64,000 bases of DNA from assembly GCA_963718875.1 (NCBI GenBank), contig OY970378.1, positions 1,011,691-1,075,690 of the forward strand. Reading direction: 5' to 3'. The notes below the pieces were generated by a model, which made no database searches, was not told the origin of the DNA, and saw only the letters and a list, made by a program, of their open reading frames with translations. The stretch comes from Candidatus Parcubacteria bacterium (GTDB lineage Bacteria; Patescibacteriota; Saccharimonadia; UBA4664; JBIOIQ01). A program made the translations under genes and the position numbers. Positions 8,217-41,423 of the stretch are shown here, piece after piece; the stretch's first letter is position 1, and every line of letters starts with the position of its first letter.

Positions 8217-8783
8217 TTACTCTATAATATCCGCAGAAATAGACAAGTAGAATAAATCAATCTTAAGATCATTGTTAAGCCTGTATGCAACAACCCAATT
8301 GTTAGCAGAGATGCCAATGTTACCCAGCCCCGCATAATTTGAGATAATCCTTGATTTGCTTATTTTATCTCTGGACTCGGTGTGCCCAGTAAAGTCCCAG
8401 GGTAAGTTTGCGCCTAGTGAAGCGCTGGATTTTGTCAGGTATGTAGAAATAGACTTTGCTGCATCGGCCTTAGACAAATCTCCGTTACCATCTGTGCTCT
8501 GACGAACAACCAATACTTTGTCTGTCATGTAGGTATCGAGTTTTGAATACTCACCCTTATTGATTAAGGCGTTAATTTCTGCCACGACCTGCGGGGTTTT
8601 ATCAACTGGTTTTTGGGATGTTGGTTTGCTTGGTGTCTGTGAGGTAGATTGAGTGTTGTTCGAGCTCTTATTCGCTTCATTTCGAGTTTTTATCACATAC
8701 CAACCAATGCCTACAATCATAGCAATTAGAACTATTGCAAACAGTACTTCAACTGCGCTAAAACCGTTTTCATTTTTTTTCAT
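8217..8783 (-). CDS. type IV pilin-like / pseudopilin protein (prepilin N-terminal motif)
   Basis: N-terminus MKKNENG|FSAVEVLFAIVLIAMIVGIGW: G|F..E(+5) prepilin cleavage/methylation pattern plus a hydrophobic helix. Confidence 0.5.
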   Translation of the reverse strand: MKKNENGFSAVEVLFAIVLIAMIVGIGWYVIKTRNEANKSSNNTQSTSQTPSKPTSQKPVDKTPQVVAEINALINKGEYSKLDTYMTDKVLVVRQSTDGNGDLSKADAAKSISTYLTKSSASLGANLPWDFTGHTESRDKISKSRIISNYAGLGNIGISANNWVVAYRLNNDLKIDLFYLSISADIIE

Positions 8784-9011
8784 TACGCTCTCCTTTCGTA
8801 GATACTATCAAATTGCTAAGGTAATTAATATAGCGTAGCAAAGGAAAAATCGCCTTTACGCTACACGAGCCAGGACTATACTGGTTCTATATCACGCCGG
8901 TAGTATTTGCGATCTCATTTCCGGAATGTAATCGTGTTTGCTTACTCTGGAAATTAAATTTCCGAAGCATCAATTCTGGTATGCACTCGTCGCACCAATG
9001 ACCTGTCCTTA

Positions 9012-9326
9012 TTATCTAGACTTAGACTGCTTGTCAATTAGGACTTTTTGCGCCCATGGGCTTACTGGCTTGTCGGTGCGATGAATACAACCAACCCAGC
9101 AACAAGGGCGGCGCTTCCCTTCTAGCAGCTCCTCTCGGGTTCGCTCTATGCGACGCTTTCTTGTCTCGATTTGCTTAGCGTTCTCTACCCAGCAAATAAA
9201 CTCATTCCGACCGAGCGGTGTGAGGCCTTGCCACCGTTCTAAGACAGCCTCGTCTGATAAAAGGACGTCCCGTAAATCAGTTGGCATTTTGTGTGCCACT
9301 CCATCTGCTATTTCAGTCTTAATCAT
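9012..9326 (-). CDS. small protein, YdeI/OmpD-associated-like family (tentative)
   Basis: 104 aa; C-terminal ...AKQIETRKRRIERTREEL resembles the conserved tail of the YdeI/OmpD-associated domain. Confidence 0.35.
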   Translation of the reverse strand: MIKTEIADGVAHKMPTDLRDVLLSDEAVLERWQGLTPLGRNEFICWVENAKQIETRKRRIERTREELLEGKRRPCCWVGCIHRTDKPVSPWAQKVLIDKQSKSR

Positions 9327-9616
9327 AGCTTTATTCTACTACAGTATCTAATCTACTGCCTCTTTATGCAGCCTATGACGAAGTTAACAAAGTATCCCTA
9401 TTGGTCAATAGCAAACCGCCCGTGCTTGCACCGGTGCTATCAAAGCTGCTACAAACAATACATGAAGTGGCTGATTGTCTTAGCGGTGGTGAGTTTATAT
9501 TTTTTCGGTACGACGCGACTTGCCAATGTGGCTTTGGCGCAGTTTCGACAGGTGGAGAATATTTATACCAATGCCGTTAATCATCCTAATCAGTTGGTGG
9601 AAAATTTTTGACTCTC

Positions 9617-10372
9617 TTAAGGTTTTAGATCCATGGCCTGGAAAATTTGGAGAGCATGCCTAAACGGATCTTTGCTGACTGGTATTTGGCCGGTAAAAGG
9701 AAAGTTTAAAGTGTAAATCAAAAACAGCACTCCAGCTACAACGATTGTTAACATGGCTGTGAGCAAATGTTGAGCCCTGAGGCTGCCCATGATTAAAAAG
9801 TAGGATGAGCCAATGGTAATAAGTCCACCGCCAATTAGTAACGGCCAAAAAACTATGGGCAAGCTGGCTTCGCCAGCCAGGTGACGCAGGTGCCTTTGTT
9901 CTTCGAGGGTGTGCAAACGATCTTGGGCAGCATCCGACGCATTGGCGTTTTTGTAAATGGTCCAGATAGGATTTATGGCATCAGCCTTGGTATGAGTCAT
10001 TACGGCGCCGTGGTTGGTCCACTCTTTATCCATGATGGTATGAGCGTAATCGTAAAACGCTTTTTGCGCGTCAGAGCGAATTGGCTCTGGAAAGTTTTCC
10101 GTATCGCGAAAAGCAACCACCAGTGAGGCAGCCTCGCTGGTTACTACTTGCTGGGAGGCAGAATAGCGTTCCCAAACGGCAAACACGACGAATGCTAAAA
10201 CAACAGCGTAAATTAAAGCAATTGCACTAAATATGTAGCCGACAATTGCTACCTCACGCTTAAGATGTTTTGTATCCAGCAAAAGTCTATGCGCCCACAG
10301 TCCAAACAGAGCAATGACTACAGATATTGCCAGGAAAGCAATTGCAGAAAGTATAATCGATAAATCTATCAC
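9617..10372 (-). CDS. hypothetical membrane protein (DUF4239-like, tentative)
   Basis: 251-aa ORF with N- and C-terminal hydrophobic helices. Confidence 0.5.
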   Translation of the reverse strand: MIDLSIILSAIAFLAISVVIALFGLWAHRLLLDTKHLKREVAIVGYIFSAIALIYAVVLAFVVFAVWERYSASQQVVTSEAASLVVAFRDTENFPEPIRSDAQKAFYDYAHTIMDKEWTNHGAVMTHTKADAINPIWTIYKNANASDAAQDRLHTLEEQRHLRHLAGEASLPIVFWPLLIGGGLITIGSSYFLIMGSLRAQHLLTAMLTIVVAGVLFLIYTLNFPFTGQIPVSKDPFRHALQIFQAMDLKP

Positions 10373-10514
10373 AATAAATTTATTATAGGCGATTATGCCT
10401 AACGTGATAAGTAATTATTTTGCTTTAAGCAAGGTACTCTATATGAGCTACGGGCGAGGCAAAAGCACAGCTCGTTTGACTTATGAAGCAATGAATTCGA
10501 CCGATTCCTTCAAA

Positions 10515-11162
10515 CTATTTTAGATTATCGTAAAAAAGCTTTCTGTCGGCTGGGCTGACCTGCTCAAGGTAACCCACAAAAGTTTTGTAATCAAGCTCTT
10601 CAAACGTTTCTAGCTCTTCATCTTCGAGATAGACTTTATCTTGGCCAGGCGTATCGAGAACGATGATGCAGCCAATTTCTTCGTTTTTATAGCCAGGAAG
10701 CAATCTGTGTACGTAATCGGTATCTTTAATATATTTAAACTCCAAGGCCTTGATGCTCATGTCTTTATATTCGTACTGGCTAATTAAGCTTATTACGTCG
10801 GGTTTTTGTAGTACTTTAATTTTACCTTCGTATTCTTCCGCAGAAGTCATGTGACACAAAAGCTTTGCTTCGGCTGGATCAACAGGAATAAACTCCTGGG
10901 CTTCGCCTTTCCTATTTACCGTGTCTGATTTGAGGCGAATTGGCCTGGAGCATTGGTAGCCACCCAATCCAGAGACGTAATACGAAGATGCTGTTTTGTA
11001 CTTAAGAGTGCCGCTGTGCTTTAGGGTGGGGTTGGTACACTCCATAGGTGAGGGGGCGCAAAAGTAATTTTTTTTGTCTGCATATCTATACACCGCATAG
11101 GCAATGGCAGACAGCCAAACAACGGATGCCAGCACTATAAACAATAGTTTTTTGCTTTTCAT
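10515..11162 (-). CDS. hypothetical membrane-anchored protein
   Basis: start chosen at MKSKKLLFIV with GGGGGAG SD; signal-anchor followed by a Cys-containing soluble domain. Confidence 0.5.
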   Translation of the reverse strand: MKSKKLLFIVLASVVWLSAIAYAVYRYADKKNYFCAPSPMECTNPTLKHSGTLKYKTASSYYVSGLGGYQCSRPIRLKSDTVNRKGEAQEFIPVDPAEAKLLCHMTSAEEYEGKIKVLQKPDVISLISQYEYKDMSIKALEFKYIKDTDYVHRLLPGYKNEEIGCIIVLDTPGQDKVYLEDEELETFEELDYKTFVGYLEQVSPADRKLFYDNLK

Positions 11163-11349
11163 AAACTCCCCCATTACCTTCCAAGGCTCGTAATTAGTGA
11201 ATAGATGGAGGCCAGAAGTGCAAATACCCACACCCCCCAACGGTAACTAGTATCGGGATTATGGCGCAATCGATGAATTTGCTTTTCCGCCCAATCGAGG
11301 GCAACAAACACGACCGCAAAGACCACCACCGACCATATAACGGCGCTGA

Positions 11350-11835
11350 TCATACAGTTGGACCCGCGTTTGGAGCGTCGTTTATGCCTAATTTTGCCTT
11401 GATCCGGTCCAAAACATTTCGTGGCGTCACTTCGGCTTTTACAATATATTCCGCACCTAGCGATTCGGCTTTTTTGCGCATTTTTGGATCGCTAGAGTTG
11501 GTAAGAATGAGTGCGGGAGAGGTTTTAAAATCGTAGCCATTTTGGACTAAGCTAGACAACACGTCCAAGCCCGAAATTTCCGGCATGCTTATATCTAGCA
11601 TCATAAGGTCGGGATGAATTTCGGTAATAGTCTGGAGTGCGTCCCGACCATTGGTTTTTATAACCACTTCAAAACCAGAGTTGGTCAACTTGGTTTGGTA
11701 CATACGAGAAATAAAAGGGTCGTCTTCGGCAATGAGGATGGTTTTGCCATTGTTTGGCAAAACAGTGTTTGCTGGTATTACGTCTTCTGGATCTGTGATG
11801 CGTGCCATGTAATACAGTTTAATGCCAAAAGACAA
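11350..11835 (-). CDS. response regulator, receiver domain only (CheY-like)
   Basis: KTILIAEDDPFISRMY...DLMMLDISMPEISGLDVL receiver motifs; no output domain. Confidence 0.65.
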   Translation of the reverse strand: MSFGIKLYYMARITDPEDVIPANTVLPNNGKTILIAEDDPFISRMYQTKLTNSGFEVVIKTNGRDALQTITEIHPDLMMLDISMPEISGLDVLSSLVQNGYDFKTSPALILTNSSDPKMRKKAESLGAEYIVKAEVTPRNVLDRIKAKLGINDAPNAGPTV

Positions 11836-11841
11836 AAGTTC

Positions 11842-12915
11842 CTAGGCGGGCTTTTTTAGATCCTTCCGAGAGTCGTGTTTTACCTTTGAGCGCTTGGCAA
11901 TCCCGAGTGGAATGGAAAAACCAAAGGTGCTACCAACGTTTTCTTGAGATTCAAAAATAACCGATCCACCTTGATCTTCGACAACTCTTTTGGCCAAATA
12001 AAGCCCTAAACCGGTCCCATCGGGTCTAGTTTTTTGGGCGTTTGTGGCCCGATAAAACTTGGTAAACAGTTTTTGCTTAGCGGCTTCTGGTACGCCAATG
12101 CCAGTATCACTCACCTTTACAATGGCATGGGTGTCATCACACTCAAGTGATACCACCACACTACCTTCCTTGGTGTAATAGATGGCATTATCAATAAAAT
12201 TCATAATAACTTGCCTGGTTTTGCCTTCATCTAGCCCTATGCGCGGGAGCTTGCGCTTTGGCAAGAGAAGTCTTAAATCCAAATGTTTGGCCATAGCATG
12301 GCTGCGCAGTTGACGCACCTCGTCGGCCAAAACCAAGCCAAGGTCAGTTGGTTTTTTTTCGATAATGAATCTGCCTGCACTTAGTCGCGAGACATTCAGA
12401 AGATCAGATATCAATGCCACCATTCTCTCTGCACCGGCATAGGCGTAACCTAAAAATTCTCGCTCTTGGTGATTTATGTGACCGGCGTCACCCTCTAAAA
12501 TCATACTAATATACCCAGTAATCGTGGTCAGGGGAGTCCTCAATTGATGCGATGTCATAGAAATAAACTCATCTTTGGCATTATCAAGCGCCCTTAAGTT
12601 GCGCTTGGCTAGTCTAAGGCGAGCTTGGGCATGTTTTAGCTGATGTTTTAGCTTTTGGTTTTCCTGGATGATAGCAGAGTGGGTATCTAATAGAGAAGAT
12701 TCTTGGGGAGTCACGACACGAGCCACCAAATTAAAACTACTACCCCGACCAAGGCTATCAATAATATAAGCATTTAACTTAATATAACCTATTGTAGTCA
12801 AATGCGTCACTTTTAAATCTTTTGGGGCCCCTTTGTCTATCGTTTCGCCATTGACGGAGCTGTCCATTTTGTAATCAACAAAATTATATTCCGCAGTTTG
12901 TAGCGCAGCTACCAC
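11842..12915 (-). CDS. sensor histidine kinase (cytoplasmic, no TM segment seen)
   Basis: H-box MTSHQLRTPLTTITGY plus HATPase_c motifs (NAIYYT, DTGIGV, GTGLGL); immediately upstream of the receiver gene. Confidence 0.7.
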   Translation of the reverse strand: MVAALQTAEYNFVDYKMDSSVNGETIDKGAPKDLKVTHLTTIGYIKLNAYIIDSLGRGSSFNLVARVVTPQESSLLDTHSAIIQENQKLKHQLKHAQARLRLAKRNLRALDNAKDEFISMTSHQLRTPLTTITGYISMILEGDAGHINHQEREFLGYAYAGAERMVALISDLLNVSRLSAGRFIIEKKPTDLGLVLADEVRQLRSHAMAKHLDLRLLLPKRKLPRIGLDEGKTRQVIMNFIDNAIYYTKEGSVVVSLECDDTHAIVKVSDTGIGVPEAAKQKLFTKFYRATNAQKTRPDGTGLGLYLAKRVVEDQGGSVIFESQENVGSTFGFSIPLGIAKRSKVKHDSRKDLKKPA

Positions 12916-12982
12916 TAATTTATTAGCTTAAGGTATATGTTATGACTTTTAGCAGCCACCGGTTAGATATACCCCAAGTGTT

Positions 12983-14305
12983 ATGATTAAGGTAATGAAA
13001 CCCAAAAGACCAAACTTGAACTTAAAAGCTTTGGCTAAGCAAACGATTGACCGAAAGCTGCGTCGATCGGTTACGCGTTTACTTCAGAATCATCACCCTA
13101 CAATTGTTGCGGTTACCGGCAGCGTAGGCAAAACCAGTGCCAAAAACGCTATCAGCCATGTCTTGTCCGATAGCCATCGAGTTAATAGCGACTTGGGCAG
13201 CTATAATACCGAGATTGGCTTGCCTTTGAGCTTTTTTGGGCTCAAAGCACCAACACGACTAACAAACCCGCTGGAGTGGAAAAAAGTTTTTAAAAAGATT
13301 AATCAAACCATCGACAGCGGATACCCTTACGACATGAGCGTCCTTGAAATGGGAGCAGATCGCCCCGGAGAGATAGGTTATTTCTTGGGTTTTATCAAGC
13401 CAAGCATTGCCGTTATTACTGGTATTGCAGCAGTCCACACACAAGGGTTTGGTACAGTTGAAGCCATTTTAGCGGAAAAATGGCTCTTGGCCGAGCAATC
13501 TGATCGGGTAGTATATAATGCTGATTTCGAGCTTTTGCGGCAACGCGCTAAAAGCCTTGCTAGCTCAAAACTGATTCGCTCTTACGGCTTGGACCATGGA
13601 GAGGTTACTTTTGCCGATTTGAGGCGAAACGCCGAGGGTTATTTTGAGGGACAACTTAAACTTGGCTCCACGAACACATTCATAGCAACGCAAATGGTTG
13701 CCCGCACCGGGCTGTATAGTTTACTTGCCGCCGCCTGTGTAGCCGATATGCTGGAAGTGACTCTAGGCGATATCATAAAAAGCCTGGGTGAAATTGCACC
13801 TACAAAGGGGCGGATGAGGTTGTTAAAAGGAGTTAATCAAAGCCAAATTTTGGATGACAGTTATAATTCTAGCCCAATTAGCGCATTGTCAGCGCTCCAA
13901 ACTCTAGCTGATTTTCCGGCAGGTCAGCGCATCGCAATCTTAGGAAGCATGAACGAGCTGGGGGATCATGCGACACAAGGTCATGTAGAAGTTGGTACAA
14001 AAGCCGGACAAGTAGTAGACTTATTAATTACTATTGGAGATGAGGCCAAAACCCATTTGGCGCCGGCGGCAATTGCAGCTGGTCTTTCGATCGACAAAGT
14101 AAAGTGCTTTGAGGGCCCCAGGGATGCGGGAATTTATGTGAGGCCGCTGATCAAGAAAGACGACGCCGTACTAGTAAAGGGGTCGCAGAACAGGGTGTTT
14201 ACCGAAGAGGCTATTAAAGTAATATTGGCATCGGATCTCGATCCAGCAGAGCAGCTAGTGCGCCAGTCGGTCGACTGGTTGCGAGTTAAGAAAGATTATC
14301 TATGA
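12983..14305 (+). CDS. murF: Mur ligase, probably UDP-MurNAc-tripeptide--D-alanyl-D-alanine ligase
   Basis: VAVTGSVGKTSAKNAI P-loop of Mur ligases; 4-nt overlap with alr downstream supports MurF. Confidence 0.6.
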   Translation: MIKVMKPKRPNLNLKALAKQTIDRKLRRSVTRLLQNHHPTIVAVTGSVGKTSAKNAISHVLSDSHRVNSDLGSYNTEIGLPLSFFGLKAPTRLTNPLEWKKVFKKINQTIDSGYPYDMSVLEMGADRPGEIGYFLGFIKPSIAVITGIAAVHTQGFGTVEAILAEKWLLAEQSDRVVYNADFELLRQRAKSLASSKLIRSYGLDHGEVTFADLRRNAEGYFEGQLKLGSTNTFIATQMVARTGLYSLLAAACVADMLEVTLGDIIKSLGEIAPTKGRMRLLKGVNQSQILDDSYNSSPISALSALQTLADFPAGQRIAILGSMNELGDHATQGHVEVGTKAGQVVDLLITIGDEAKTHLAPAAIAAGLSIDKVKCFEGPRDAGIYVRPLIKKDDAVLVKGSQNRVFTEEAIKVILASDLDPAEQLVRQSVDWLRVKKDYL

Positions 14306-15438
14306 TTTCGTGGCGACAACGTTTTAGCGAACCTTATGAAACCCTTAACCGAATTGAGGTATCTAAGGAGCGCTTGCTCCATAATTATGATTTGGTCGTG
14401 AGTCAGCACCCAAACATGGCTATTATGCCGGTTCTTAAAGGTAATGCCTACGGACATGGGTTGCTTCAGGTAGCCGAAATTTTACAAAAACGCCAGCCAC
14501 CTTATATCGTGGTCGATGGCTACTTTGAAGCCTTAAAGCTGAGGCGGTTAACCAGGCGGCCCATTTTGATAATGGGGTACATCAACCCCAGCAACTACGC
14601 TGTACTTAAAACCGAAGGTCTGGCCTTTGTAGTGCACGACCAGCCAACGCTTGAAGCACTAGCAAAACTCCGCCGGTCAATAACAGTTCATTTAGAAATT
14701 AATACAGGTATGAACCGCCAAGGTATCCAACCAGCAGAACTAGTGAGTTATTTGGCTCTGTTCAAAAGCCACCCTAGCTTGAAGTTGGAAGGAATCATGT
14801 CGCACTTAGCAGACGCCGATGGCGAAACTACAAGCTATACCCGTGAACAGGTGGAGCTATTCGATCAATGCGTACAGGCTGTGTTAGCGGCCGGGTTTAA
14901 GCCAAAACTAATCCATTTGGCACAAACCGCCGGTAGCGTGCGGGCCGTATCCGCCTATGCCAACGCCATGCGCTTAGGCATAGGTCTGTATGGAATTAAC
15001 CCTTTTGGTACTGGAACACCTTCACACCAGAGGCTAGCGGGCTTAAGTCCGGCTTTAACTTTTAAGAGTACCATTATTAAGGTAATTGAGGTTAAAAAGG
15101 GTGAGAAAATTAGTTACAATGGTATTTTTACGGCCAAAACTGCAACTCGCATTGGGGTTTTACCGTTAGGTTATTACGAAGGCGTTCCTAGAAGTTTAAG
15201 TAATAACGGTGTAGTAAAACATGGTCAGGAATATTTTCCAATCGCCGGGCGGGTTTGCATGAACCACATTATGATCGACCTAGGAACATCCAAAGCCGGG
15301 TATATGGACCAAGTCGAAGTGATAAGTAATAAGCCAGCCGATCAAAATAGCGTGGCTAGATTAGAGAGCGAGCAGGGGTTGTTTTCTTATGAGCTTTTAA
15401 CGGGATTGTCCGAATCGGTCAGGAGGGTGGTTGTTTAG
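14302..15438 (+). CDS. alr: alanine racemase
   Basis: PLP motif AIMPVLKGNAYGHG; 378 aa. Confidence 0.8.
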   Translation: MISWRQRFSEPYETLNRIEVSKERLLHNYDLVVSQHPNMAIMPVLKGNAYGHGLLQVAEILQKRQPPYIVVDGYFEALKLRRLTRRPILIMGYINPSNYAVLKTEGLAFVVHDQPTLEALAKLRRSITVHLEINTGMNRQGIQPAELVSYLALFKSHPSLKLEGIMSHLADADGETTSYTREQVELFDQCVQAVLAAGFKPKLIHLAQTAGSVRAVSAYANAMRLGIGLYGINPFGTGTPSHQRLAGLSPALTFKSTIIKVIEVKKGEKISYNGIFTAKTATRIGVLPLGYYEGVPRSLSNNGVVKHGQEYFPIAGRVCMNHIMIDLGTSKAGYMDQVEVISNKPADQNSVARLESEQGLFSYELLTGLSESVRRVVV

Positions 15439-15511
15439 TCTAAGTTAAGGAATGGTGGGATTACTCTCGGCTTGCGACAACCTGAAGCGAAAATAATTCA
15501 TGATTCCTTAT

Positions 15512-16321
15512 TCATAATTCGCGAGGATTTGCTTTTGTTGCTGCGAGCAGCAAATTATCAAACAAAGCTGCTACAGTCAGCGGGCCAACCCCACCGGGAT
15601 TAGGAGTTATTTTGAGGGTTTCGTCATCGTAGAGAGCATGGTCCACATCGCCGACTAAATTTCCGCCCATTTCGGTAGTTCCGGCATCCACAATAACGCT
15701 TCCGGGGCGGACCATGTCGGCTTTAATAAGACTTGGGACGCCAGCGGCAGTTACAATAATGTCAGCTTTAAGGGTCTCCTCTTTAAGATTTACTGTAGTC
15801 TTATCACAGCGGATCACTTGAGCCTGTGAGTTCTCCAACATATCTGCCAGTGGCTTGCCAACAACTCTTCCCTGCCCCACGACAGTTACGGTTTTGTCTT
15901 GCCACTCAACGCCGTAGGAGCTGAGCAGCCAAAGGATGGCTTTGGGTGTAGCCGGATCAAATTGACTTTTGGGGTGTAGGCCGTCAATGTCCTTAAATGG
16001 ATCAACAGACGACAAACCACGATCCAGATCCAAGCCGGCAAAAGGCAGTTGTACTATTATTCCATTAACGTCGGCGCGCTGATTCAGCTTGTGAATGAAG
16101 TTTTCTACTTCTTTCGTATCTCCAGCCGTCTCATGCACCTCTACCACCGCCCCAATATCCTGGCTGTAACGCGTTTTAGTGCTTTTGACATACATGCGCG
16201 TGGCCGCATTAGCTTCTGCACTCATCACTATGGCTAGTTTTGGTGTAAACCCTAGAGCTTTGATTTGCTCGGCGTGACGACGCTTCAGGTAATCGGCCAA
16301 GTCTCGTCCGTGAAGCAACAT
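15512..16321 (-). CDS. folD: bifunctional methylenetetrahydrofolate dehydrogenase/cyclohydrolase
   Basis: 269 aa; Rossmann GxGxxVG (VVGQGRVVGKP) and FolD N-terminal catalytic region. Confidence 0.8.
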   Translation of the reverse strand: MLLHGRDLADYLKRRHAEQIKALGFTPKLAIVMSAEANAATRMYVKSTKTRYSQDIGAVVEVHETAGDTKEVENFIHKLNQRADVNGIIVQLPFAGLDLDRGLSSVDPFKDIDGLHPKSQFDPATPKAILWLLSSYGVEWQDKTVTVVGQGRVVGKPLADMLENSQAQVIRCDKTTVNLKEETLKADIIVTAAGVPSLIKADMVRPGSVIVDAGTTEMGGNLVGDVDHALYDDETLKITPNPGGVGPLTVAALFDNLLLAATKANPREL

Positions 16322-16340
16322 TAGCTAACCTCCTGTTTAT

Positions 16341-16397
16341 GAAAGTCCGACTTTAATCTTTGTTGATTGCTGCAATCCGGATTTAAAGTCGGACTTT
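16341..16397. repeat. paired nested-palindrome repeat R1 (AAAGTCCGACTTTAATC ... GATTTAAAGTCGGACTTT)
   Basis: two AAGTCNGACTT palindromes about 39 bp apart in inverted orientation; family also at 20176, 21216 and 41359. Confidence 0.6.
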
Positions 16398-16467
16398 TGA
16401 TCTCCATACTTCGTCGCCTTAAAGATACTTCATTCTTTGTGGTTAGTAATGCTTGATTCATAATTCG

Positions 16468-17154
16468 TTATTCATTATTCGCAGATTCTAAAAGCGGCCT
16501 TACTAAGTTACTAACATCAATATTGTGAGGCCAATCGGCAGCAGTCTTCTTATTATAGGCTTTGAAGTTCTTTTTATCGAGGAAGTGCGCTTTGGTGGGA
16601 TCGGGTAAGTAATCAATAAAAAGACGGCCATCTAGGTGGTCAACTTCGTGCTGCAGCAAGATGGCCGGCCAACCCTTGGCCTCTAAGGTGAGCTTGGTAC
16701 CAAATCGGTCTAGAGCTGTAACTGTAACGGCGCTGGCTCGATCTATTAGCCCCCATACACTAGGCAAATTTACACAGCCCTCACGGTTTGTAGCTTTGGA
16801 TTTGGAGCGCTTTATAATTTCTGGGTTTATTAACACGTGTATATCGCTGTATTTTTTGCTGCCAACGCCCATATCTACGATACTGATGCGCCGCATAATA
16901 CCAACCTGAGGAGCCGAAAGACCCACTGTCATCGGAAGATTGTGAGCATGGTTTCGACCCTTATTGTTATGTCCGCATACAAACCTAATTAACTGTTCGA
17001 TAGTGTTTTGCATAGCGGCCGTACGCAACTCTCGTCGCCCAATCGACTGAGAGATTTGACGTAGAGTCGGGTTATCTGGTTTTAATGCGTGCAGCTGTGG
17101 GTTGGTCATTATATGTATGGTATCAGAAAAGCCGCTTAAAAAGATGGTTGTCAT
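16468..17154 (-). CDS. def: peptide deformylase (N-terminally extended ORF; true start may be near 17109)
   Basis: GLSAPQVG and HEVDHLDG motifs present; the third PDF motif was not located. Confidence 0.75.
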   Translation of the reverse strand: MTTIFLSGFSDTIHIMTNPQLHALKPDNPTLRQISQSIGRRELRTAAMQNTIEQLIRFVCGHNNKGRNHAHNLPMTVGLSAPQVGIMRRISIVDMGVGSKKYSDIHVLINPEIIKRSKSKATNREGCVNLPSVWGLIDRASAVTVTALDRFGTKLTLEAKGWPAILLQHEVDHLDGRLFIDYLPDPTKAHFLDKKNFKAYNKKTAADWPHNIDVSNLVRPLLESANNE

Positions 17155-17171
17155 GGAATGATTGGATGTCC

Positions 17172-17200
17172 TTGTATAAAGACCATAACCGTGTTATAAT
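17172..17200 (+). promoter_or_regulatory. near-consensus sigma70 promoter TTGTAT-17-TATAAT
   Basis: -35 at 17172-17177, -10 at 17195-17200; no plus-strand protein gene follows. Confidence 0.45.
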
Positions 17201-17206
17201 TTTAAT

Positions 17207-17395
17207 TACAACTTTCAACAGGGGGTTCGAGTGTGCGGTGGGTAATCTGCATACCCGTCTATGTAGTGATCGTTTTATTGATCGCGGGGTTCACGGGCAT
17301 GAACAATCAGAGGCATCGCGACAAAGACTTTTAGCCCAACCTGGTCGCTAGCGGCGATCATGGGGACTCTCCGGTTTATCCGGGGAGTCCCACTT
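17207..17395 (+). ncRNA. candidate small RNA (about 190 nt, unknown family) between the consensus promoter and a terminator
   Basis: only tiny ORFs inside; GC-rich structured segments; terminator hairpin 17362-17392 followed by a U-rich tract. Confidence 0.3.
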
Positions 17396-17405
17396 TCTTT
17401 TAAGC
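17362..17405 (+). terminator. intrinsic terminator hairpin GGGGACTCTCCGG-TTTA-TCCGGGGAGTCCC plus U-rich tail
   Basis: 13-bp stem with 1 mismatch, then ACTTTCTTTTAA. Confidence 0.5.
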
Positions 17406-18226
17406 TATCTGGCACCCACCAGGTTGCTACTTTCATAACGGCGGATTGAGCGGCGGAAAAGCCACAGAGTTACAGCCAGCCAAAATAGCGCAACCGGAAT
17501 ACCCAAAAGCACAGTCCGCCAATCAAATCGATGCAATACATCCAGTTGGACCGCGCCTATAAAAAGACCGGGGACAATCGTTAGCAAAAATACCCGTAGG
17601 ACTCCGGTCAGAATTCCCGTGGGGTATAGACCACTGTCCAGAATGGATGTACCAACCATTCTGCTAATTTGTTCGCTGTCAAAAACGTAAAAGGCTATTA
17701 TTCCAGGCAGTAAGACTACAAAACACCAAAAAATTATTAAGCCTATCAAGAGCGATCCGGTAAACACAATTAGCTTTGTAACGCTTATTCCAGACACCAA
17801 CATGTACCATGTAACCAACCCGAGCCCCAGCAATAGATCGCCAAACGTGGTTGAGTCTACGTTACTGCTAGCCAGCTGTAGCAAAAGTGGCGTTGGTTTT
17901 GTAAGCATATTATCGAGCGATCCCCGATCAACATGCTTAGGTAAGTCCAGGATTCCAACGCTTAATATCATGACGATGCCGAATATCACCATATTCATAC
18001 CTTCAAAGCCAATTAACTCTTGCGCACGCCAGCCATTGATTGATCCAAAACGCTGGAATAAAAACAACCAAGCAATGGTTATGGCAGCATTGTTCAATAT
18101 CATAGCCCCTATTTGTAATGCAAATGCGCCTCGCAAGGCCATGGCTCCTTTAATTTGCAAGCAAAGGCTATGCCAATACACGCCTAGGTCCTTGCGAAGG
18201 TCACGCAAACTATATTTATCCACCAT
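17405..18226 (-). CDS. ABC-2 family transporter permease
   Basis: 273-aa polytopic membrane protein in an operon with an ABC ATPase. Confidence 0.6.
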   Translation of the reverse strand: MVDKYSLRDLRKDLGVYWHSLCLQIKGAMALRGAFALQIGAMILNNAAITIAWLFLFQRFGSINGWRAQELIGFEGMNMVIFGIVMILSVGILDLPKHVDRGSLDNMLTKPTPLLLQLASSNVDSTTFGDLLLGLGLVTWYMLVSGISVTKLIVFTGSLLIGLIIFWCFVVLLPGIIAFYVFDSEQISRMVGTSILDSGLYPTGILTGVLRVFLLTIVPGLFIGAVQLDVLHRFDWRTVLLGIPVALFWLAVTLWLFRRSIRRYESSNLVGAR

Positions 18227-19013
18227 TCACCTCAATGCGTAATAAAGCTCGTTTCCAAATGACGTTACAAATGTAGACAAGTACACCTGTCCATACGATG
18301 GCTGACAAGACATAGCCTGGCAACACGCTGGCAATTTGAGGATTAAACAGCTGTGTCGGAGCCGAGTAAACCCCTAAAGGAGAAAACCGCACAAATGTTT
18401 GGACCCCTTGAGGGAGCAAGGCAATGGGCACAAACCCCCCGCCGAATACAAGGATAGCCTTATCGAACAATCTAAAAACCGATTTAGCATCATTGAGCCA
18501 AAAGGCCGCTAGGCCAATAGATAGGAAGAGACTGCTTGCACTTATAATAGCAAGCGTAGTAAGAACGAAAAACATTAGCAGAAAAGGCATGGTCCAGAAT
18601 GATATATCTGGCTTGTTAATGAGCAGGAGTAAAAATATGGGTGATATGAATAGTTGCACCAAAAATACGGTTCCGTTCTTGCCTAACAGCTGACATAACT
18701 TTGCAAGTCTCCAGTCTACTGGCTTGATTAACTGAACCTCAATTTCACCCGTTTGAACATCCCGCTCTACCAGGGTGAACAAATGTCGTAAGCCTAAGTT
18801 TGATATAAAAGCAAAGTATACTGCCAGGCTCCATACGGCGTTTTGATAAGGCAGCGATGGTTTGTTGAATTGATAAGCAGCAGCGTAGATAGCGGACAAC
18901 AAAAAAACCCGAAAAAACGTTACAGCTACCGCTCCAACTCTTCTTTGCCAAGTATCCTCTCTTGCCGATGCAACGACAATTCGCCAGTACGGTCGCCAGT
19001 TCATTTTACTCAT
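18216..19013 (-). CDS. ABC-2 family transporter permease
   Basis: 265-aa polytopic membrane protein; overlaps the downstream permease by 11 nt. Confidence 0.6.
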   Translation of the reverse strand: MSKMNWRPYWRIVVASAREDTWQRRVGAVAVTFFRVFLLSAIYAAAYQFNKPSLPYQNAVWSLAVYFAFISNLGLRHLFTLVERDVQTGEIEVQLIKPVDWRLAKLCQLLGKNGTVFLVQLFISPIFLLLLINKPDISFWTMPFLLMFFVLTTLAIISASSLFLSIGLAAFWLNDAKSVFRLFDKAILVFGGGFVPIALLPQGVQTFVRFSPLGVYSAPTQLFNPQIASVLPGYVLSAIVWTGVLVYICNVIWKRALLRIEVNGG

Positions 19014-19163
19014 CGTAGGATCTGTTCCAACTTTTATAAAGACTTGGCTGGGATGGAGTACAAGGAGAGCTTGAAGACCGTAAGTAAGCCGTAGTAGTAC
19101 CTACGGCGAACGCGGACTGGAAAGATCGACACCGTAATACGCACAGCCAAGCCTTTATAGATC

Positions 19164-20141
19164 TCATGGTGCTTGCCGAGTGTAGAGCTCGTGAATTATG
19201 TCTTCCAAGGGTGTATCTTCGACCGTCATATCGGCAATTTCTAGTGACTCAAGCATGGCCGGAAGAAATTTTTTCATTGAGTGTTTGGCGGTATCTATAG
19301 AATAAGTAGCTACACCGTCCTCATAATTAGCTGGTGCAATACCCAAGATAGCTGGCATCTCTTTTAGCTGCTTTTTGAGTACTACCCTTACTGTTTTGTT
19401 CTTGAGGTAGTCAGACTTGAGTTGGTCGGTAGGAGTATCAAGCATGATTCGGCCGTGATTGATAATAACGGTACGGTCACTAACTTCTTCGACGTCCCCA
19501 ACATCATGACTCGTTAAGAAAATGGTGGTTCCGAGGTCGCGATTTATCTGCCTGACGGCCTCTCTTAAGCTGCGTCTAGCCACAACATCAAGACCAATGG
19601 TGGGTTCGTCCAGAAAAACAATCTCTGGATTATGTAGAAGCGAGTTGGCTACTTCTGCCCGCATACGTTGGCCAAGTGACAGCTTGCGGACTGGTTGACC
19701 AGCAAATTCTTCTAGGTTAAATTGGGCCGTCACTTCATTTATGCGTTTCTGAACTTGACTGCGATCGATGGCGTACATATCGGCCGTTAATTTAAGGCTG
19801 TCAATAAGGGGCAAGTTAAAAATAAGCTGAGACCGTTGACCAAACACCGTGCCGATTCGATAGGCAAGTTCACGCCTTTGGCTAAGTGGGTTAAGTTCCA
19901 ACGCCCTAATGAGCCCTTTGGTCGGTTGTAAAATACCGCAGAGCATTTTTATCGTAGTGGATTTGCCAGCCCCATTTGGCCCAATAAAAGCTATGGACTC
20001 ACCTGCTTCGACTTGCAGGCTAATATTGTCAACCGCCTTAACTTGCTTGTGCTCAGGATTAAAAAAGCCTTTCAATCCTTGCCGTTTGGCATAAGTAAAG
20101 GTTTTGGAAACATTATGGAGAGTAATGGCAGGTTGTGGCAT
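19164..20141 (-). CDS. ABC transporter ATP-binding protein
   Basis: Walker A GPNGAGKST, signature LSLGQRMR, Walker B VFLDEPTIGLD. Confidence 0.8.
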   Translation of the reverse strand: MPQPAITLHNVSKTFTYAKRQGLKGFFNPEHKQVKAVDNISLQVEAGESIAFIGPNGAGKSTTIKMLCGILQPTKGLIRALELNPLSQRRELAYRIGTVFGQRSQLIFNLPLIDSLKLTADMYAIDRSQVQKRINEVTAQFNLEEFAGQPVRKLSLGQRMRAEVANSLLHNPEIVFLDEPTIGLDVVARRSLREAVRQINRDLGTTIFLTSHDVGDVEEVSDRTVIINHGRIMLDTPTDQLKSDYLKNKTVRVVLKKQLKEMPAILGIAPANYEDGVATYSIDTAKHSMKKFLPAMLESLEIADMTVEDTPLEDIIHELYTRQAP

Positions 20142-20175
20142 TGTAGGTTTTTAATTTACCTTACTTTTAGATGGT

Positions 20176-20232
20176 TGAAGTCGGACTTCAATCTTTGATA
20201 ATTTAAGCAATATTGATTTGAAGTCTGACTTC
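20176..20232. repeat. paired nested-palindrome repeat R2 (GAAGTCGGACTTCAATC ... GATTTGAAGTCTGACTTC)
   Basis: same family as R1, R3 and R4; inner segment TTAAGCAAT shared with R3. Confidence 0.6.
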
Positions 20233-20408
20233 TAATCTGGTTTTATTGTAGCGAAGTTTCAGCACAAGTGGAAACGGGTTATCATTGCAAGGGATCCCGA
20301 TTTTTTGCGACATGATGAAGGTAGCATCATGAGATTGCCACGCTCATCCTTCGCTCGCAATGACGATTTTGTAAATCCACTAGGGTCATACCGTGTAATA
20401 ATAAACTT

Positions 20409-20681
20409 ATGGATAAAAAACACTACAAGATTCGCGTCACCGGTAAAGTTCAAGATGTTGGCTTTCGTTCCAGCGCCAAGCGCCGGGCCGAAGAATTGGG
20501 CTTACATGGTTTTGCACGCAACGAGCCAGACGGAACGGTTTATGTTGAAGTTGAAGGGTCAGCTGATCAAGTTGAAAAGTTTTTAGAGTGGTGCCAAAAT
20601 GGCTCGAACGAAGCAATCGTAGAAACTGTTGACGTGACTGATCACCCCCCGGTTGGGCATGAGGGGTTTGAGCGGCTGTAA
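20409..20681 (+). CDS. acyP: acylphosphatase
   Basis: 90 aa; VTGKVQDVGFRSSAKRRAEELGLHGFARNEPDGTVYVEVEG matches the acylphosphatase signatures. Confidence 0.75.
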   Translation: MDKKHYKIRVTGKVQDVGFRSSAKRRAEELGLHGFARNEPDGTVYVEVEGSADQVEKFLEWCQNGSNEAIVETVDVTDHPPVGHEGFERL

Positions 20682-20716
20682 AAAAACTGCCCGCCCCAAG
20701 ACTTCCGGGGCGGGCG
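20680..20716. terminator. bidirectional intrinsic terminator (perfect 9-bp GC stem); the U tract is on the minus-strand side
   Basis: GCCCGCCCC-aagacttcc-GGGGCGGGC preceded by an A7 run; sits between convergent acyP and the 20749-21126 gene. Confidence 0.55.
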
Positions 20717-20748
20717 TTCTGACAATTGGCCTCTGTCACTCATCTGAT

Positions 20749-21126
20749 TCAGCTGGGTGTTTCTTGCCTGCCACGGTAGATCAGCCAGTCGAGCTTGCCC
20801 TGCAAGAGAGGAATCTCTAGCAAGATACAGAGGCAGCCGATAACTATCCAAAATGCGCCGTCCAGACCAAGCGCTACGATCAGCAGGGCCACAGAGGCAA
20901 GGGAAAATGCCACCGCAGTAGTGCGTGTAAGCGGAAGCTCCGACAGCGCTACCAGAATAGGATCGGCCATCCCCGACATCACGACTGGGAGCAGCATCGT
21001 GCAGATCAAGATGACGACTAACAGGCCGGACCACCAGATACTCTCGAAGATGGGCGCGATGGCTACTGCCATAACAGCTGCGATAACGCCGGCCGACTTA
21101 CGGCGGAGAGCCTGCATATCGTTCAT
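20749..21126 (-). CDS. hypothetical membrane protein (GC-rich islet)
   Basis: 125 aa, three or four hydrophobic helices; SD AAGGAAG 6 nt before ATG; GC-rich relative to the flanks. Confidence 0.45.
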   Translation of the reverse strand: MNDMQALRRKSAGVIAAVMAVAIAPIFESIWWSGLLVVILICTMLLPVVMSGMADPILVALSELPLTRTTAVAFSLASVALLIVALGLDGAFWIVIGCLCILLEIPLLQGKLDWLIYRGRQETPS

Positions 21127-21215
21127 ATGCCACTTCCTTATCGTTGGATCGTAGATGCGAGTAATTTCGCTTTATTATTGTTGACCCAAAAGGGTTTTTT
21201 GGCAATGGCGAAAAG

Positions 21216-21272
21216 AGAAGTCAGACTTTAATATTCGCCGCATTAAGCAATCCAGATTTGAAGTCTGACTTC
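21216..21272. repeat. paired nested-palindrome repeat R3 (AGAAGTCAGACTTTAAT ... GATTTGAAGTCTGACTTC)
   Basis: same family; lies between two minus-strand genes. Confidence 0.6.
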
Positions 21273-21285
21273 GATTTTCTGAAAT

Positions 21286-21822
21286 TTACGGTACTAGCTC
21301 TGGTCCCTTATCTAGATGGTCATTATAAAACTGTAAAATTTTGGCTTCGTCGGGTGTAGTTAAACTATGGGAGTATGTCCAGGCAGTTAATTCAATGGGG
21401 TTTTTATTAGCCGCCCGAGGGGCAAGAATAGCTTTGACCGAGTTAAATTGTTGGCTTACCGGCAGCTTGTTATAAATCTGCTTTAGTTTCGCAATTTGGT
21501 CTTTGGGCAGGTCCGGCTTGTAAAAAATATTTATACCGCCATGCTCTAGGTTGTGTACCAACTGCTCATCCGGTAAGGCACTATCTTTAATCCCCCAAGT
21601 TGCTGGCTGAGGGTAATGCGAGCCTGAGGTGGGTGGATTAGAGTTGTAGGTTTCATGGGGAGTACCCGGCTGAATATGGGTTTGTCCTTGGTTTGCATGT
21701 GTTGTACCGAGTCGTTTTGCGTTATCTTTTTTGGCCGGGGTAGATTTGTTGCCGATTATAAACAAGCCAATCAGTACGGCGACAATGGCAACTAAACCTA
21801 GGGGTAAACCAAGCTTTTTCAT
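21286..21822 (-). CDS. secreted/membrane-anchored protein, DUF3105-like (tentative)
   Basis: N-terminal signal-anchor; LVHNLEHGGINIFY resembles the conserved His/Gly block of DUF3105. Confidence 0.45.
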   Translation of the reverse strand: MKKLGLPLGLVAIVAVLIGLFIIGNKSTPAKKDNAKRLGTTHANQGQTHIQPGTPHETYNSNPPTSGSHYPQPATWGIKDSALPDEQLVHNLEHGGINIFYKPDLPKDQIAKLKQIYNKLPVSQQFNSVKAILAPRAANKNPIELTAWTYSHSLTTPDEAKILQFYNDHLDKGPELVP

Positions 21823-21899
21823 TAAAAATTCCTAATTAAATTCTAATCTAACTCGAACAATGTTATTTATTTATACCACATTTTACAAGTTGCTAAGCG

Positions 21900-24527
21900 C
21901 TACACTTCTTCCATTCTGATGTTGCGCAACCTGGGAACACCACCCTTGAGGGGGATAACCAGCCTGGCTTTTTTTGAAGGAGTATTTTCCAAATATCTCC
22001 AGGTGATGGTTTGAACGAGTTGATCCGCCAATAATTCTGACAACATAGCCTGGTACTGCGGTGATTCGAGCAGACTAGTGTTAGCCGAAACAACCACCTG
22101 GCCTTCAGTGCCGAATTCAAGCTCCAGACTAACTTCTTTTAACGTTTCCGGGAAATGGTATCTTTCGCCAATTTCCGAGACTGCTAAGATCAACATGTCT
22201 TCTTTGGTCGAGTGGATAGGGATACTTGCTTCGACTTTTTTGGGATCATACGTAACTGAACGAGAAGACAGTTCTAAAGAAAGAGTTAGTTCCGGTAGCT
22301 GGACGGGCTGGGGTTTTTCAATAGGATGTTCTGGTGTGAGCAAATCCGGAACGGGGTGGTCGGTTTTACTAGTCTTTTTAGCAAAATCACGAGTGGCTGG
22401 CACAGTTGTCCAGAGGGCAACACGTCCGGAAATCTTATTCTTATCACCGCGCCTTTCTCTACTTTTGGCTCCAGGTGACTGTGTAATCCAGGTTGGTAAC
22501 TCCGCAGTTTCTTTATCCCCAAAGGCATGTGGACCGATTGTATAAACCTCAGTGTCCTGGTATTTGGCTGCCACCTGCTCGCCGGTTTCATCGGTAACAT
22601 ACTCGGCTGAAAGGCCTCCCCCTGGCAGCTCTAAAGCTAATGGATTTTCGGCTTTTACCCCGGACAGAAAATAGTTTAGTCGCATTCCCGAACCATCATC
22701 TTCGATCTGACCGGCGATTGGATCACCATGACTCCTAGGAAAAAGATGATAATTAACCAACTTTTTCCCAGAACTTTCATCGACAGTTATACTGTCAACG
22801 ACCAATTCTTTGTAAAAACTATCTGGTCCAAAAAACACATGCGACCCAGCAGATTCAAAAATTTGACCGAGTGAAGCATTTACTGTTTCGGGGTTTCTAA
22901 TTATGCTGTTGGCGAGACGCTTATTTACAACTTGTGCAAAATCTTTATCAAACCCGGTGGTCATAATTACATGGTCTACGATCTGTGTGGCTGTACCGCT
23001 AAACTTTTTTTGTCCATCTTCCAGGACGTTATTGCCTTCTTCATCTCTTTCATAAATGCCATAGGTAATTTCAATCTTGCCGTCATCCGTACGGCGCAAA
23101 GAAAGCGCGCGTCCATCGATGGGGTTAATTCTATGAAAATACTCTTCGGGATCTATCCCTTCCGGCGGTACATCACCAGCCATTTTGGTGTACCGATGCC
23201 GTAAGCTGGTGGCAAACTTTTGCTCATCCTTCTGTTCAAGCCCGATCCAATCGATAGTTATGTTTGTCTCTTGACGCGTAGTTAAACCGGCGTTGCCACC
23301 ATACCCTAGCAGCTGCTCTCCTACTGTGCTGCCCGAATCACCGGCTCCAATTACCGCTACTCTACCCCAGCCTTCAAATGGCAGTTCACCCCGACGTATC
23401 CTGTCAATAGTTTGACGCTGGAACGATCCCAAGGTGTGTACTTGGGCTTCTTGGCCATTTCTATGCTTGTCTGCTTCTTCGGCTACTATCTGTTGCGACT
23501 GTTCGTCTCGAAAGCTAGAGGTTTCCCTTCCTAATCCGCCCGCCCAAATTAATCGATCTGTTGTAACTTCATAGCTTTTGCCTGTTTGAGGGTCCACAAA
23601 AGTCACAATGTATTCCGCCTTGCCATCTTCTTGAGCGTATGGGTTGCGCCGCACTTCTGAAACTTCGGCGTTTACCAAGGCTCGGCCTGCCAGAGTTTCA
23701 TTGACTCTAACAGCTGTCGCCAACTTATCTTGAGCGCTATAGGCATCATAATGCAGGTCTGAATCCGTCAGGGCTCCCCGCCCCAAGCTGTTCTTGTTAC
23801 CGCTGCGACCAGCAATATTTTCGCTAGGATCTGAGGACTCTGGCCCAGACTTGGTGTTGAGTTCGTGAACCTCAGTTTCGTAGGCGAACTGTCCGCCTAG
23901 ATGAGCACCAGCCTCCAAAATAAGACTCGGGTGGTCGGGGTCTTGAAAAAGACGCTCTGCAACATAGACTTGTGCGTGCGGGCCGGAGCCAATTATGATT
24001 TCATGAACATGGGTTTCGCCGCCCAAAATACGTTCCTTAAACTCATCCGATTCACGCTCGGTGAGACGGTCAATCGCTTCATTCATAAGCGCTTGTCCGC
24101 GTTCCACTCGAACAATTCCGGCTAAGTAAGGTGTAAGATCGCGATGGGTTTGACCTTCCGAGACGGCCTCATCGGCACCATCTTCGCCATACCCTACCAT
24201 TTTTTCTTGGAGGGCAGCTCGCGCTGGGGCATCCTCCGCCGAAACGCCTTCTCTGCCCTCAGCTATATCTCTTTTGATCAATCGGCGGCGGACGCTATCG
24301 GTCACAGAAGAGCGGATTTCGTCTATAGCCCTTACGGCCCGACTTAACGCCCGTAACTCTGGGGTTTTGAGGCGCTCAGCCATCACCCTGCGGCCTTTCG
24401 TCTCAAGATCTTCATCTAATGCTTCGGGCGTGAGGATGGTAGGAAACGGATCCCGTTCTGAATCAGTGATGGCGGGGAGAGCGGCGCTAGCTTCTATATC
24501 TGGTTGGCTCTGTACTATTTCGGGCAT
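21900..24527 (-). CDS. large (875 aa) two-dinucleotide-binding flavoprotein, class-B flavin monooxygenase-like core with extra N- and C-terminal regions
   Basis: two Rossmann motifs (HEIIIGSGPHAQVYV and RVAVIGAGDSGSTVGEQL) and an ATG-like motif (VIMTTGFD); flanking ~170-aa N-terminal and ~250-aa C-terminal regions unrecognised. Confidence 0.55.
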   Translation of the reverse strand: MPEIVQSQPDIEASAALPAITDSERDPFPTILTPEALDEDLETKGRRVMAERLKTPELRALSRAVRAIDEIRSSVTDSVRRRLIKRDIAEGREGVSAEDAPARAALQEKMVGYGEDGADEAVSEGQTHRDLTPYLAGIVRVERGQALMNEAIDRLTERESDEFKERILGGETHVHEIIIGSGPHAQVYVAERLFQDPDHPSLILEAGAHLGGQFAYETEVHELNTKSGPESSDPSENIAGRSGNKNSLGRGALTDSDLHYDAYSAQDKLATAVRVNETLAGRALVNAEVSEVRRNPYAQEDGKAEYIVTFVDPQTGKSYEVTTDRLIWAGGLGRETSSFRDEQSQQIVAEEADKHRNGQEAQVHTLGSFQRQTIDRIRRGELPFEGWGRVAVIGAGDSGSTVGEQLLGYGGNAGLTTRQETNITIDWIGLEQKDEQKFATSLRHRYTKMAGDVPPEGIDPEEYFHRINPIDGRALSLRRTDDGKIEITYGIYERDEEGNNVLEDGQKKFSGTATQIVDHVIMTTGFDKDFAQVVNKRLANSIIRNPETVNASLGQIFESAGSHVFFGPDSFYKELVVDSITVDESSGKKLVNYHLFPRSHGDPIAGQIEDDGSGMRLNYFLSGVKAENPLALELPGGGLSAEYVTDETGEQVAAKYQDTEVYTIGPHAFGDKETAELPTWITQSPGAKSRERRGDKNKISGRVALWTTVPATRDFAKKTSKTDHPVPDLLTPEHPIEKPQPVQLPELTLSLELSSRSVTYDPKKVEASIPIHSTKEDMLILAVSEIGERYHFPETLKEVSLELEFGTEGQVVVSANTSLLESPQYQAMLSELLADQLVQTITWRYLENTPSKKARLVIPLKGGVPRLRNIRMEEV

Positions 24528-24583
24528 AGTTATTACGCTTAATGCGCTAATTATAGCTTATCGTTAAGGCAAATCATAACAGG

Positions 24584-41349: not shown

Positions 41350-41358
41350 TCTAGATCA

Positions 41359-41423
41359 GAAGTCAGACTTCAAATCTAGACCACCTAAGCATGGTTATTA
41401 AAGTCTGACTTTTAAATCAAGCA
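41359..41423. repeat. paired nested-palindrome repeat R4 (GAAGTCAGACTTCAAATC ... AAAGTCTGACTTTTAAATC)
   Basis: same family; immediately downstream of murA. Confidence 0.55.

Follow-up and report, generated by a model that had tools for sequence, protein, structure and literature searches.

A probable REPIN-like family of paired palindromes between the genes of a Candidatus Parcubacteria bacterium

What maintains two identical small palindromes, at an almost constant distance from each other, in four separate intergenic regions of one bacterial contig? The four elements, R1 to R4, are located in a window of 64 kb (the whole stretch of DNA analyzed, 64,000 nucleotides), which is part of a contig of 1,189,924 bp; four proteins from the window were checked, and each is the sole member of its 90% identity cluster. 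A preliminary description of the window offered two kinds of answer, namely a target for a DNA-binding protein acting as a dimer of dimers, or a small mobile or REP-like repeat or bidirectional RNA hairpin. The explanation that we favor, and consider probable, is that R1-R4 form a family of the REP-doublet (REPIN) type, made up of small, dispersed, non-coding repeats and restricted to their lineage.

The paired palindromes are real and statistically secure. There are eight exact matches to AAGTCNGACTT in the 64-kb window, as compared to 0.07 expected by chance, and none of 100 shuffles reached this number. The matches start at positions 16343, 16386, 20178, 20221, 21218, 21261, 41360 and 41401, and they pair up without exception into the four elements; all of them fall inside the four nested-palindrome copies that had been reported. 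The spacing did need correction. The centers of the palindromes had been placed 39-41 bp apart, and the measured distances are 43, 43, 43 and 41 bp for R1 to R4, respectively, which is still about four helical turns. If one or two mismatches to AAGTCNGACTT are allowed, the total is 33 versus 26 expected; once the eight perfect sites are subtracted about 25 remain, which is the chance level. A profile HMM built from the four copies recovers R1-R4 alone, i.e., the window contains no degenerate copies, and the density of the element is four copies per 64 kb. The features are as follows, with strands given for whole elements (the palindromes and boxes have none).

16342..16403, minus strand: R1, whole element, between the def stop (16468) and the folD start (16321)
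R1 layout on the minus strand: AGATCA-AAAGTCCGACTTT-AAATC...GATT-AAAGTCGGACTTT
16343..16353: R1 palindrome AAGTCCGACTT, exact-match search
16386..16396: R1 palindrome AAGTCGGACTT, exact-match search
20173..20238, minus strand: R2, whole element, flanked by the divergent ABC ATPase and acyP genes
20178..20188: R2 palindrome AAGTCGGACTT, exact-match search
20221..20231: R2 palindrome AAGTCTGACTT, inside the 23-bp near-palindrome GATTTGAAGTCTGACTTCTAATC
21210..21279, minus strand: R3, whole element, with an additional outer GAAAA/TTTTC pairing
21218..21228: R3 palindrome AAGTCAGACTT, exact-match search
21261..21271: R3 palindrome AAGTCTGACTT, exact-match search
41353..41419, plus strand: R4, whole element, inverted relative to R1-R3 and with a spacer shorter by 2 nt
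41360..41370: R4 palindrome AAGTCAGACTT, exact-match search
41401..41411: R4 palindrome AAGTCTGACTT, exact-match search
20203..20211: inner spacer box TTAAGCAAT of R2, present again in R3 at 21243-21251
Spacer box counterparts: GCAATC at 16372-16377 in R1, and TAAGCA in R4

Each element is about 65 bp long and contains two identical small palindromes. The palindromic unit is 13-27 bp and consists of the core RAAGTCNGACTTY, usually with GATT/AATC outer blocks; a unit that has both blocks is a near-palindrome of 23-27 bp, and the clearest case is GATTTGAAGTCTGACTTCTAATC in R2. When the four copies are aligned in a common orientation, a near-invariant 24-nt end (AGATYARAAGTCNGACTTYAAATC) is followed by a spacer with a GATTGC / (TTAA)GCAAT box and then by an invariant second arm (GATTRAAGTCNGACTTY). 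The inner box that R2 and R3 were said to have in common is indeed present in both. Besides the spacer box, one outer flank is conserved as well.

The conservation is very unevenly distributed. In the alignment of the four copies, none of the 20 specified positions in the cores of the two palindromes varies, and the half-sites AAGTC/GACTT are identical in 16 of 16 cases. In contrast, the 21-nt spacer core is only 57-62% identical among R1-R3 (ungapped count), and the overall identity between copies is about 75%. The central bases of the two paired arms are Watson-Crick complementary in three of the four copies and form G/T in the remaining one. We infer from the invariant half-sites next to a diverged spacer, the strongest sign of this kind in the data, that a sequence-specific protein recognizes the arms.

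The question then becomes where the elements are located relative to genes. All four copies lie between called genes, as first described, and the gene context given for each of them at that time was correct. R1 is intercistronic: def is on one side and folD, whose start is 20 nt away, on the other, and the element ends 8 nt ahead of the folD Shine-Dalgarno sequence. R2 is flanked by an ABC ATPase gene (start 20141, minus strand) and acyP (20409-20681, plus strand; Pfam Acylphosphatase), and a promoter-like site for the ABC operon, TTTCCA-18-TACAAT (20274-20245, minus strand), precedes the start of R2 by a few nt. R3 begins 14 nt past the stop of a DUF3105 gene (21286) and has a 125-aa membrane ORF as its other neighbor; on the minus strand, UCUUUUC comes next and then a promoter-like site for this ORF (21205-21177), whose -35 element R3 abuts. 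R4 begins 3 nt past the murA stop (41349), and the TATAAT box of the next gene is about 110 nt downstream. A promoter carried by the element itself was considered and rejected, as R2 alone among the four copies has a promoter-like match.

Another short intergenic motif in the window, CGCAATGACGNTTTTGTAAAT, may be a promoter-associated box. It is found at 9938-9958, 20356-20376 and 33239-33259, and the second of these copies precedes the acyP start by about 35 nt, on the stretch that separates this gene from R2.

The preliminary description had called for the copies to be mapped genome-wide relative to promoters. In the window, three of the four copies are directly after genes or between co-directional genes, R2 is in a divergent promoter/5'UTR region, and no constant position relative to promoters is evident. 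The orientation displays a clearer pattern. A profile made from R1-R3 alone scores R4 at 31.0 bits on the opposite strand versus 18.9 on the same strand, and so R4 is inverted relative to the other three. R1-R3 are among minus-strand genes, whereas the inverted R4 comes after murA, a plus-strand gene; measured against the direction in which the local genes are transcribed, the four copies thus all point the same way, and with the first copy given, the probability of this by chance is 1 in 8. A replication origin near 40 kb, where gene orientation switches, was considered and rejected because there is no DnaA-box cluster at the switch and the GC skew is weak. Therefore, with no evidence for an origin in the window, the orientation bias tracks the direction of transcription.

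Could the palindromes be paired operators? Each palindrome of 11-23 bp would then bind a dimer of a transcription factor or nucleoid-associated protein, for example a winged-helix protein like those of the GntR/FadR type, and two such dimers on the same face of the DNA, about four turns apart, would cooperate to repress or organize the neighboring genes. Invariant half-sites whose central base is free, together with a spacing fixed at 43/41 bp, are what this explanation predicts, and R1 and R2 are in suitable places, that is, 20-36 nt upstream of start codons in a leader or intercistronic region, with R2 just downstream of the promoter-like site. Furthermore, the GTCNGAC core, which is reportedly mentioned in papers on the GntR/FadR-type regulators LldR and FadR, and the 5-N-5 form of the palindrome resemble the operators of such proteins. 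Known operators of this type, however, are single, sequence-variable sites at the promoters of a coherent regulon, whereas R1-R4 are invariant doublets within a conserved repeat, mostly at gene ends. R3 and R4 directly follow stop codons and are upstream of, or far from, the next promoter; the flanking genes (folD, an ABC-2 exporter, acyP, the membrane ORF, the DUF3105 gene and murA) have no common function; and imperfect sites occur at the chance level, unlike in real regulons. An operator would also need neither the conserved spacer box and outer flank nor complementary centers in the two arms. Thus, the invariant palindromes and the four-turn spacing of the proposed dimer-of-dimers target hold up, but the gene context fits it poorly, and we regard paired operators as unlikely.

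Folding provides a different perspective. Each of the four copies is predicted to form a long RNA hairpin on either strand; the energies range from -17.9 to -26.9 kcal/mol and the z values from -4.5 to -6.2. For example, the values on the minus and plus strands are -22.0 and -25.2 kcal/mol for R1 (z about -5.5); the two strands give -17.9/-24.6 kcal/mol for R2 and -20.2/-24.1 kcal/mol for R4. As single-stranded DNA, the long hairpin has energies of -11.6 to -15.1 kcal/mol, and the alternative is a pair of small hairpins, one per palindrome, which is the minimum free energy fold for R2. A single unit as single-stranded DNA (-1.8 to -4.7 kcal/mol) is weaker than typical GC-rich REPs. The helix common to the four sequences has 17 pairs with 92.6% of the cells paired, and 13 of the 17 pairs never vary. 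Changes on both sides occur in three of the 17 pairs; with four sequences, 57 of 500 shuffles do equally well, and therefore covariation neither proves nor disproves the pairing.

These hairpins could be cis-acting RNA structures under their own selection, serving as terminators or attenuators, as RNase III-type processing sites or as stabilizers of mRNA. Their stability as RNA on both strands and the orientation of all four copies relative to transcription are consistent with such a role. In addition, no other hairpin separates the stop codon from the next promoter at R3 or at R4, each of these two has a U-rich tail, and R1 is intercistronic. A hairpin, however, requires neither arms that are palindromes in themselves nor invariant AAGTC/GACTT sequences, and selection for structure would permit compensatory changes, yet most of the pairs are fixed. 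An intrinsic terminator has a GC-rich stem, a loop of 3-8 nt and a U tract. Canonical GC-rich terminators are present elsewhere in the window; R1-R4, in contrast, have AT-rich stems and loops of about 20 nt, and R1 and R2 are without U tails. Finally, Rfam gave no match at the elements, either at the gathering thresholds or at E values up to 5. RNA hairpins as the primary function are thus, in our opinion, quite unlikely.

Among the other palindromes in the window is a near-perfect one of 46 bp at 2055-2100 (TTATATCACCAAAAGTAATAATA|TATTAGTACTTTTGGTGATATAA). It is intergenic, follows an FAD-linked oxidase gene and could be an operator or a bidirectional terminator.

A third possibility is a conventional MITE, i.e., a deletion derivative of an insertion sequence (IS) with a DDE transposase, in which the arms would be terminal inverted repeats and a full-length IS elsewhere in the genome, with ends that match AGATYARAAGTCNGACTTY, would mobilize the copies in trans. 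Inverted-repeat arms of 17-24 nt, a total length of about 65 bp and a dispersed, intergenic distribution would suit such an element. A target-site duplication, however, is missing at every consistent boundary; specifically, none of the boundaries common to the four copies has a direct duplication of at least 3 nt. The copies also look old, with diverged middles and perfect arms, and a MITE would not explain why the arms are themselves palindromic. Together with the lack of any IS element or transposase in the window, these observations make a conventional MITE very improbable.

The search for proteins that might act on the repeat covered about 60 ORFs of the window with Pfam. Transposases, RAYT/IS200-like proteins and GntR regulators were all missing among them, and the lack of a GntR regulator counts against the operator explanation. 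A scan of the window for the HUH...Y..NP motif yielded no RAYT/HUH candidate either. The DNA-binding regulators that were found, one TrmB-like and one MarR-like, do not adjoin the elements. Two ORFs close to the repeats were considered as the cognate protein and rejected: the 125-aa ORF between R2 and R3 encodes a membrane protein, and an 875-aa neighbor has a GSG motif (dinucleotide-binding type, by eye) and no Pfam match.

How far does the family extend beyond the window? Four related genomes, one of them from Antarctic soil (PMC11677454), were compared; they have 63-73% folD identity and contributed about 60 kb of DNA in total. No match to AAGTCNGACTT was found in these 60 kb, where about 3.7 elements would be expected at the density of the window, and this absence likewise counts against operators and in favor of a lineage-restricted repeat. 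The neighborhoods in the relatives are rearranged, and synteny around the sites is not preserved.

A short-read contig of the same organism spans positions 7841-25312 of the window and passes through R1-R3 unbroken. An assembly break at the repeats, which would be a sign of many identical copies, was therefore rejected; because the contig is continuous there, long identical copies elsewhere are unlikely and there is no sign of a recent burst. The absence of long identical copies also agrees with the identity of about 75% between copies.

The strict family pattern had no matches in JGI metagenomes, and a looser pattern had 20, all of which were unrelated sequences; BLAST against plasmids and phages gave nothing significant. 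A scan of a genome collection for the palindrome pair found at least 115 loci in many phyla, and most of the cross-phylum loci listed are long hairpins or 21-bp tandem repeats. Those that were fetched score at most 28 bits with the family profile versus 50-65 bits for the real copies, and their likeness stops at the two palindromes. In a viral collection, three composition-matched control palindrome pairs matched 3, 3 and 20 loci versus 7 for AAGTCNGACTT. Because the control pairs give similar counts, the AAGTCNGACTT pair is not special across phyla and its matches are background. A universal cross-phylum motif was rejected on these grounds, that is, controls that match as often and no profile match past the two palindromes.

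Two Chloroflexota MAGs have large families with an identical core palindrome, a spacing of 44 bp and different flanks (TGACTCCACTG...). The Chloroflexota element is about 95 bp long and is present in dozens of copies with the form TGACTCCACTG(CG/AA)AAAAGTCCGACTTCTGT...AGAAGTCGGACTTTT (loci L035 and L007-L114). In the Caldilineaceae MAG contig JAWKOL010000058.1 (L035, 2565-3618), two copies flank a gene for a GntR/FadR-type regulator. Because the conserved flanks differ, homology with R1-R4 is unproven and the resemblance is best treated as an analogy.

The window contains several additional repeats, which are described here in their own right. A second family of hairpin repeats is found at 4745-4850, 32750-32940, 45165-45240 (plus strand) and 45262-45340 (minus strand). 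Its layout is TTGTCA-YYCCCTATCGGAAGCC, a variable loop of 25-70 nt and GCGCTCCGGATAGGGRRYC, usually followed by a T-rich tract and TTTCTGGGTCCC; the changes in the stem look compensatory (ATTCCC/GGGAAT, ATCCCC/GGGGAT and ACCCCC/GGGGG), and Rfam gave no match to the family. The repeated motif TTTTCTGGKTCCCCGCCTTCGCRGGGA(C/T)AACAA occurs at 31682-31744 and 32875-32937 and also at 4830-4850, with one copy directly upstream of a 94-aa GIY-YIG ORF (31405-31689, minus strand). The motif could serve as a promoter or leader, or it could belong to a small mobile unit. Upstream of purL, at 45374-45448, is a perfect 23-nt inverted repeat (AGTTGCACGGGTGCCTCCCGTGT and its complement) with the arms 29 nt apart. 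Each arm is a GC-rich hairpin (CACGGG...CCCGTG), and the whole is a nested palindrome of the REP-doublet type that is single-copy in the window.

Other sequences are repeated only once. Two 71-nt copies of a terminator-like hairpin (CAAAACAAAAACCCCAGC...GCTGAGGTTTTTGTTTTG), 89% identical, are located at 63119-63189 and 63930-64000, and a short-read contig of the same organism ends within the second copy. A 58-nt direct repeat with 78% identity, TGGAGGGCCG...CCCCGGCT.GTGGCC.GGGTAAACTTCTCGTC, is present at 29256-29313 and 37436-37493; a histidine-phosphatase gene near tRNA-Lys lies downstream of one site, and the other follows a TrmB-like gene. The repeat has no Rfam match. The region 43753-45068 looks like a tandemly duplicated, truncated purH N-terminus. 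Its two adjacent minus-strand ORFs, 43803-44279 and 44508-45068, match only the N-terminus of AICARFT/IMPCHase (purH), the matches being confined to the MGS domain and the first ~58 residues of AICARFT/IMPCHase, and each ORF is preceded by a copy of a 36-nt repeat (43753 and 44463, 710 bp apart).

We return to the REP-doublet reading of R1-R4. REPINs are defined as a pair of inverted ends that are highly conserved, with a more variable spacer between them; the element can fold either into a long hairpin or into a 'clover' (PMC3116915). R1-R4 have this architecture: each end overlaps a small palindrome that corresponds to a REP, single-stranded DNA or mRNA of the element is predicted to form the long hairpin, and the alternative fold is the clover in which each REP folds alone. 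The location is strictly extragenic, and the distance from end to end is fixed, as it is in the SBW25 GI family, although it is 71 bp in that family and 43 bp here. Thus R1-R4 share several features of REPs and REPINs, namely a short palindromic unit that can form a stem-loop (about 20-40 nt in REPs, 13-27 nt here), an inverted doublet with a long hairpin, ends that are more conserved than the spacer, and an extragenic location.

The differences are also clear. R1-R4 are smaller; each arm is a perfect, AT-rich 5-N-5 palindrome, and the hairpin of a single unit is weak. REPs and REPINs have a cognate single-copy RAYT (HUH/Y1) gene, usually with repeats on its flanks, and they occur in tens to hundreds of copies per genome; most work on such systems concerns Proteobacteria and Cyanobacteria. 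Here, the cognate RAYT was not found within the 64 kb, the window has four copies as compared to hundreds per genome in pseudomonads, and the host is an uncultured bacterium rather than a proteobacterium.

The tag is another difference. Most catalogued REPs carry an unpaired GTAG or CGTC at one end of the unit, and the tagged REPs are often dimers in opposite orientation, 20-100 bp apart, that fold into larger hairpins (PMC3733652). Tagged families are often species-specific, with 20-100 units, and they are also found outside the Proteobacteria, including in the Chloroflexi (PMC3733652). R1-R4 resemble these GTAG/CGTC REPs and their HH/TT dimers (Di Nocera et al. 2013, PMC3733652) in being short stem-loop repeats dimerized in opposite orientation. 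However, neither GTAG/CTAC nor CGTC/GACG is consistently beside any of the eight units, and so the defining tetranucleotide of that group is missing from all of them.

Two other known systems are partly similar. Like R1-R4, the E. coli BIMEs combine two palindromic units with a conserved linker box, which is (TTAA)GCAAT here, and are intercistronic or at the 3' ends of genes, where E. coli REP hairpins stabilize the upstream mRNA; there is no sequence similarity, however, and the linker of R1-R4 has no IHF-like consensus (by eye). PATEs, which are derived from IS200/IS605 ends, share the two near-identical subterminal hairpins, the lack of a target-site duplication and a consistent orientation bias. 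They differ in that R1-R4 do not adjoin a conserved target tetra- or pentanucleotide and that no TnpA or TnpB gene was seen in the window.

In weighing the REP-doublet reading, we also counted in its favor that a second hairpin-repeat family and a GC-rich nested palindrome are present in the same window, and therefore REP-like repeats do occur in this genome. Against it, we counted the lack of a RAYT or transposase in the window, the missing GTAG/CGTC tag, the weak AT-rich units, the small number of copies, the compensatory changes that are too few to prove pairing and the short-read contig that is unbroken through R1-R3. Because the tag is absent, no RAYT is encoded in the 64 kb and four copies were seen in the window, we call the elements REPIN-like rather than proven REPINs. 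With these reservations, the small mobile or REP-like repeat of the preliminary description is better supported than the operator, as it matches the REPIN architecture except for the tag and the RAYT gene.

How such a family might persist can be sketched by analogy with REPINs. Recognition by a sequence-specific protein would keep the half-sites AAGTC/GACTT constant, and the recognizing protein would most likely be a single-copy HUH/Y1 enzyme (RAYT- or IS200-like) that acts on the folded single strand and copies or maintains the elements. The hairpins of the inserted elements would then act at the RNA level as a by-product. Since R3 and R4 directly follow stop codons and are themselves followed by U-rich tails, they probably end or stabilize the upstream transcript; R1, which is intercistronic, and R2, at the start of a 5'UTR, probably affect the stability or processing of mRNA. 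There is also a small chance that matters are different, either with the palindromes kept by selection for an abundant dimeric protein (a nucleoid-organizing protein or global regulator that uses transcription-oriented, hairpin-prone doublets as chromosomal sites) or with an enzyme that is not a RAYT maintaining a population of REPIN-like elements.

In conclusion, if the REPIN-like nature of R1-R4 is confirmed, they would add an untagged, AT-rich family of REP doublets from a poorly sampled bacterium. For genome annotation, sites of this type should not be read as operators; instead, transcripts probably end or are processed there, and the sites provide a search motif with which the cognate enzyme may be traced in the full genome.
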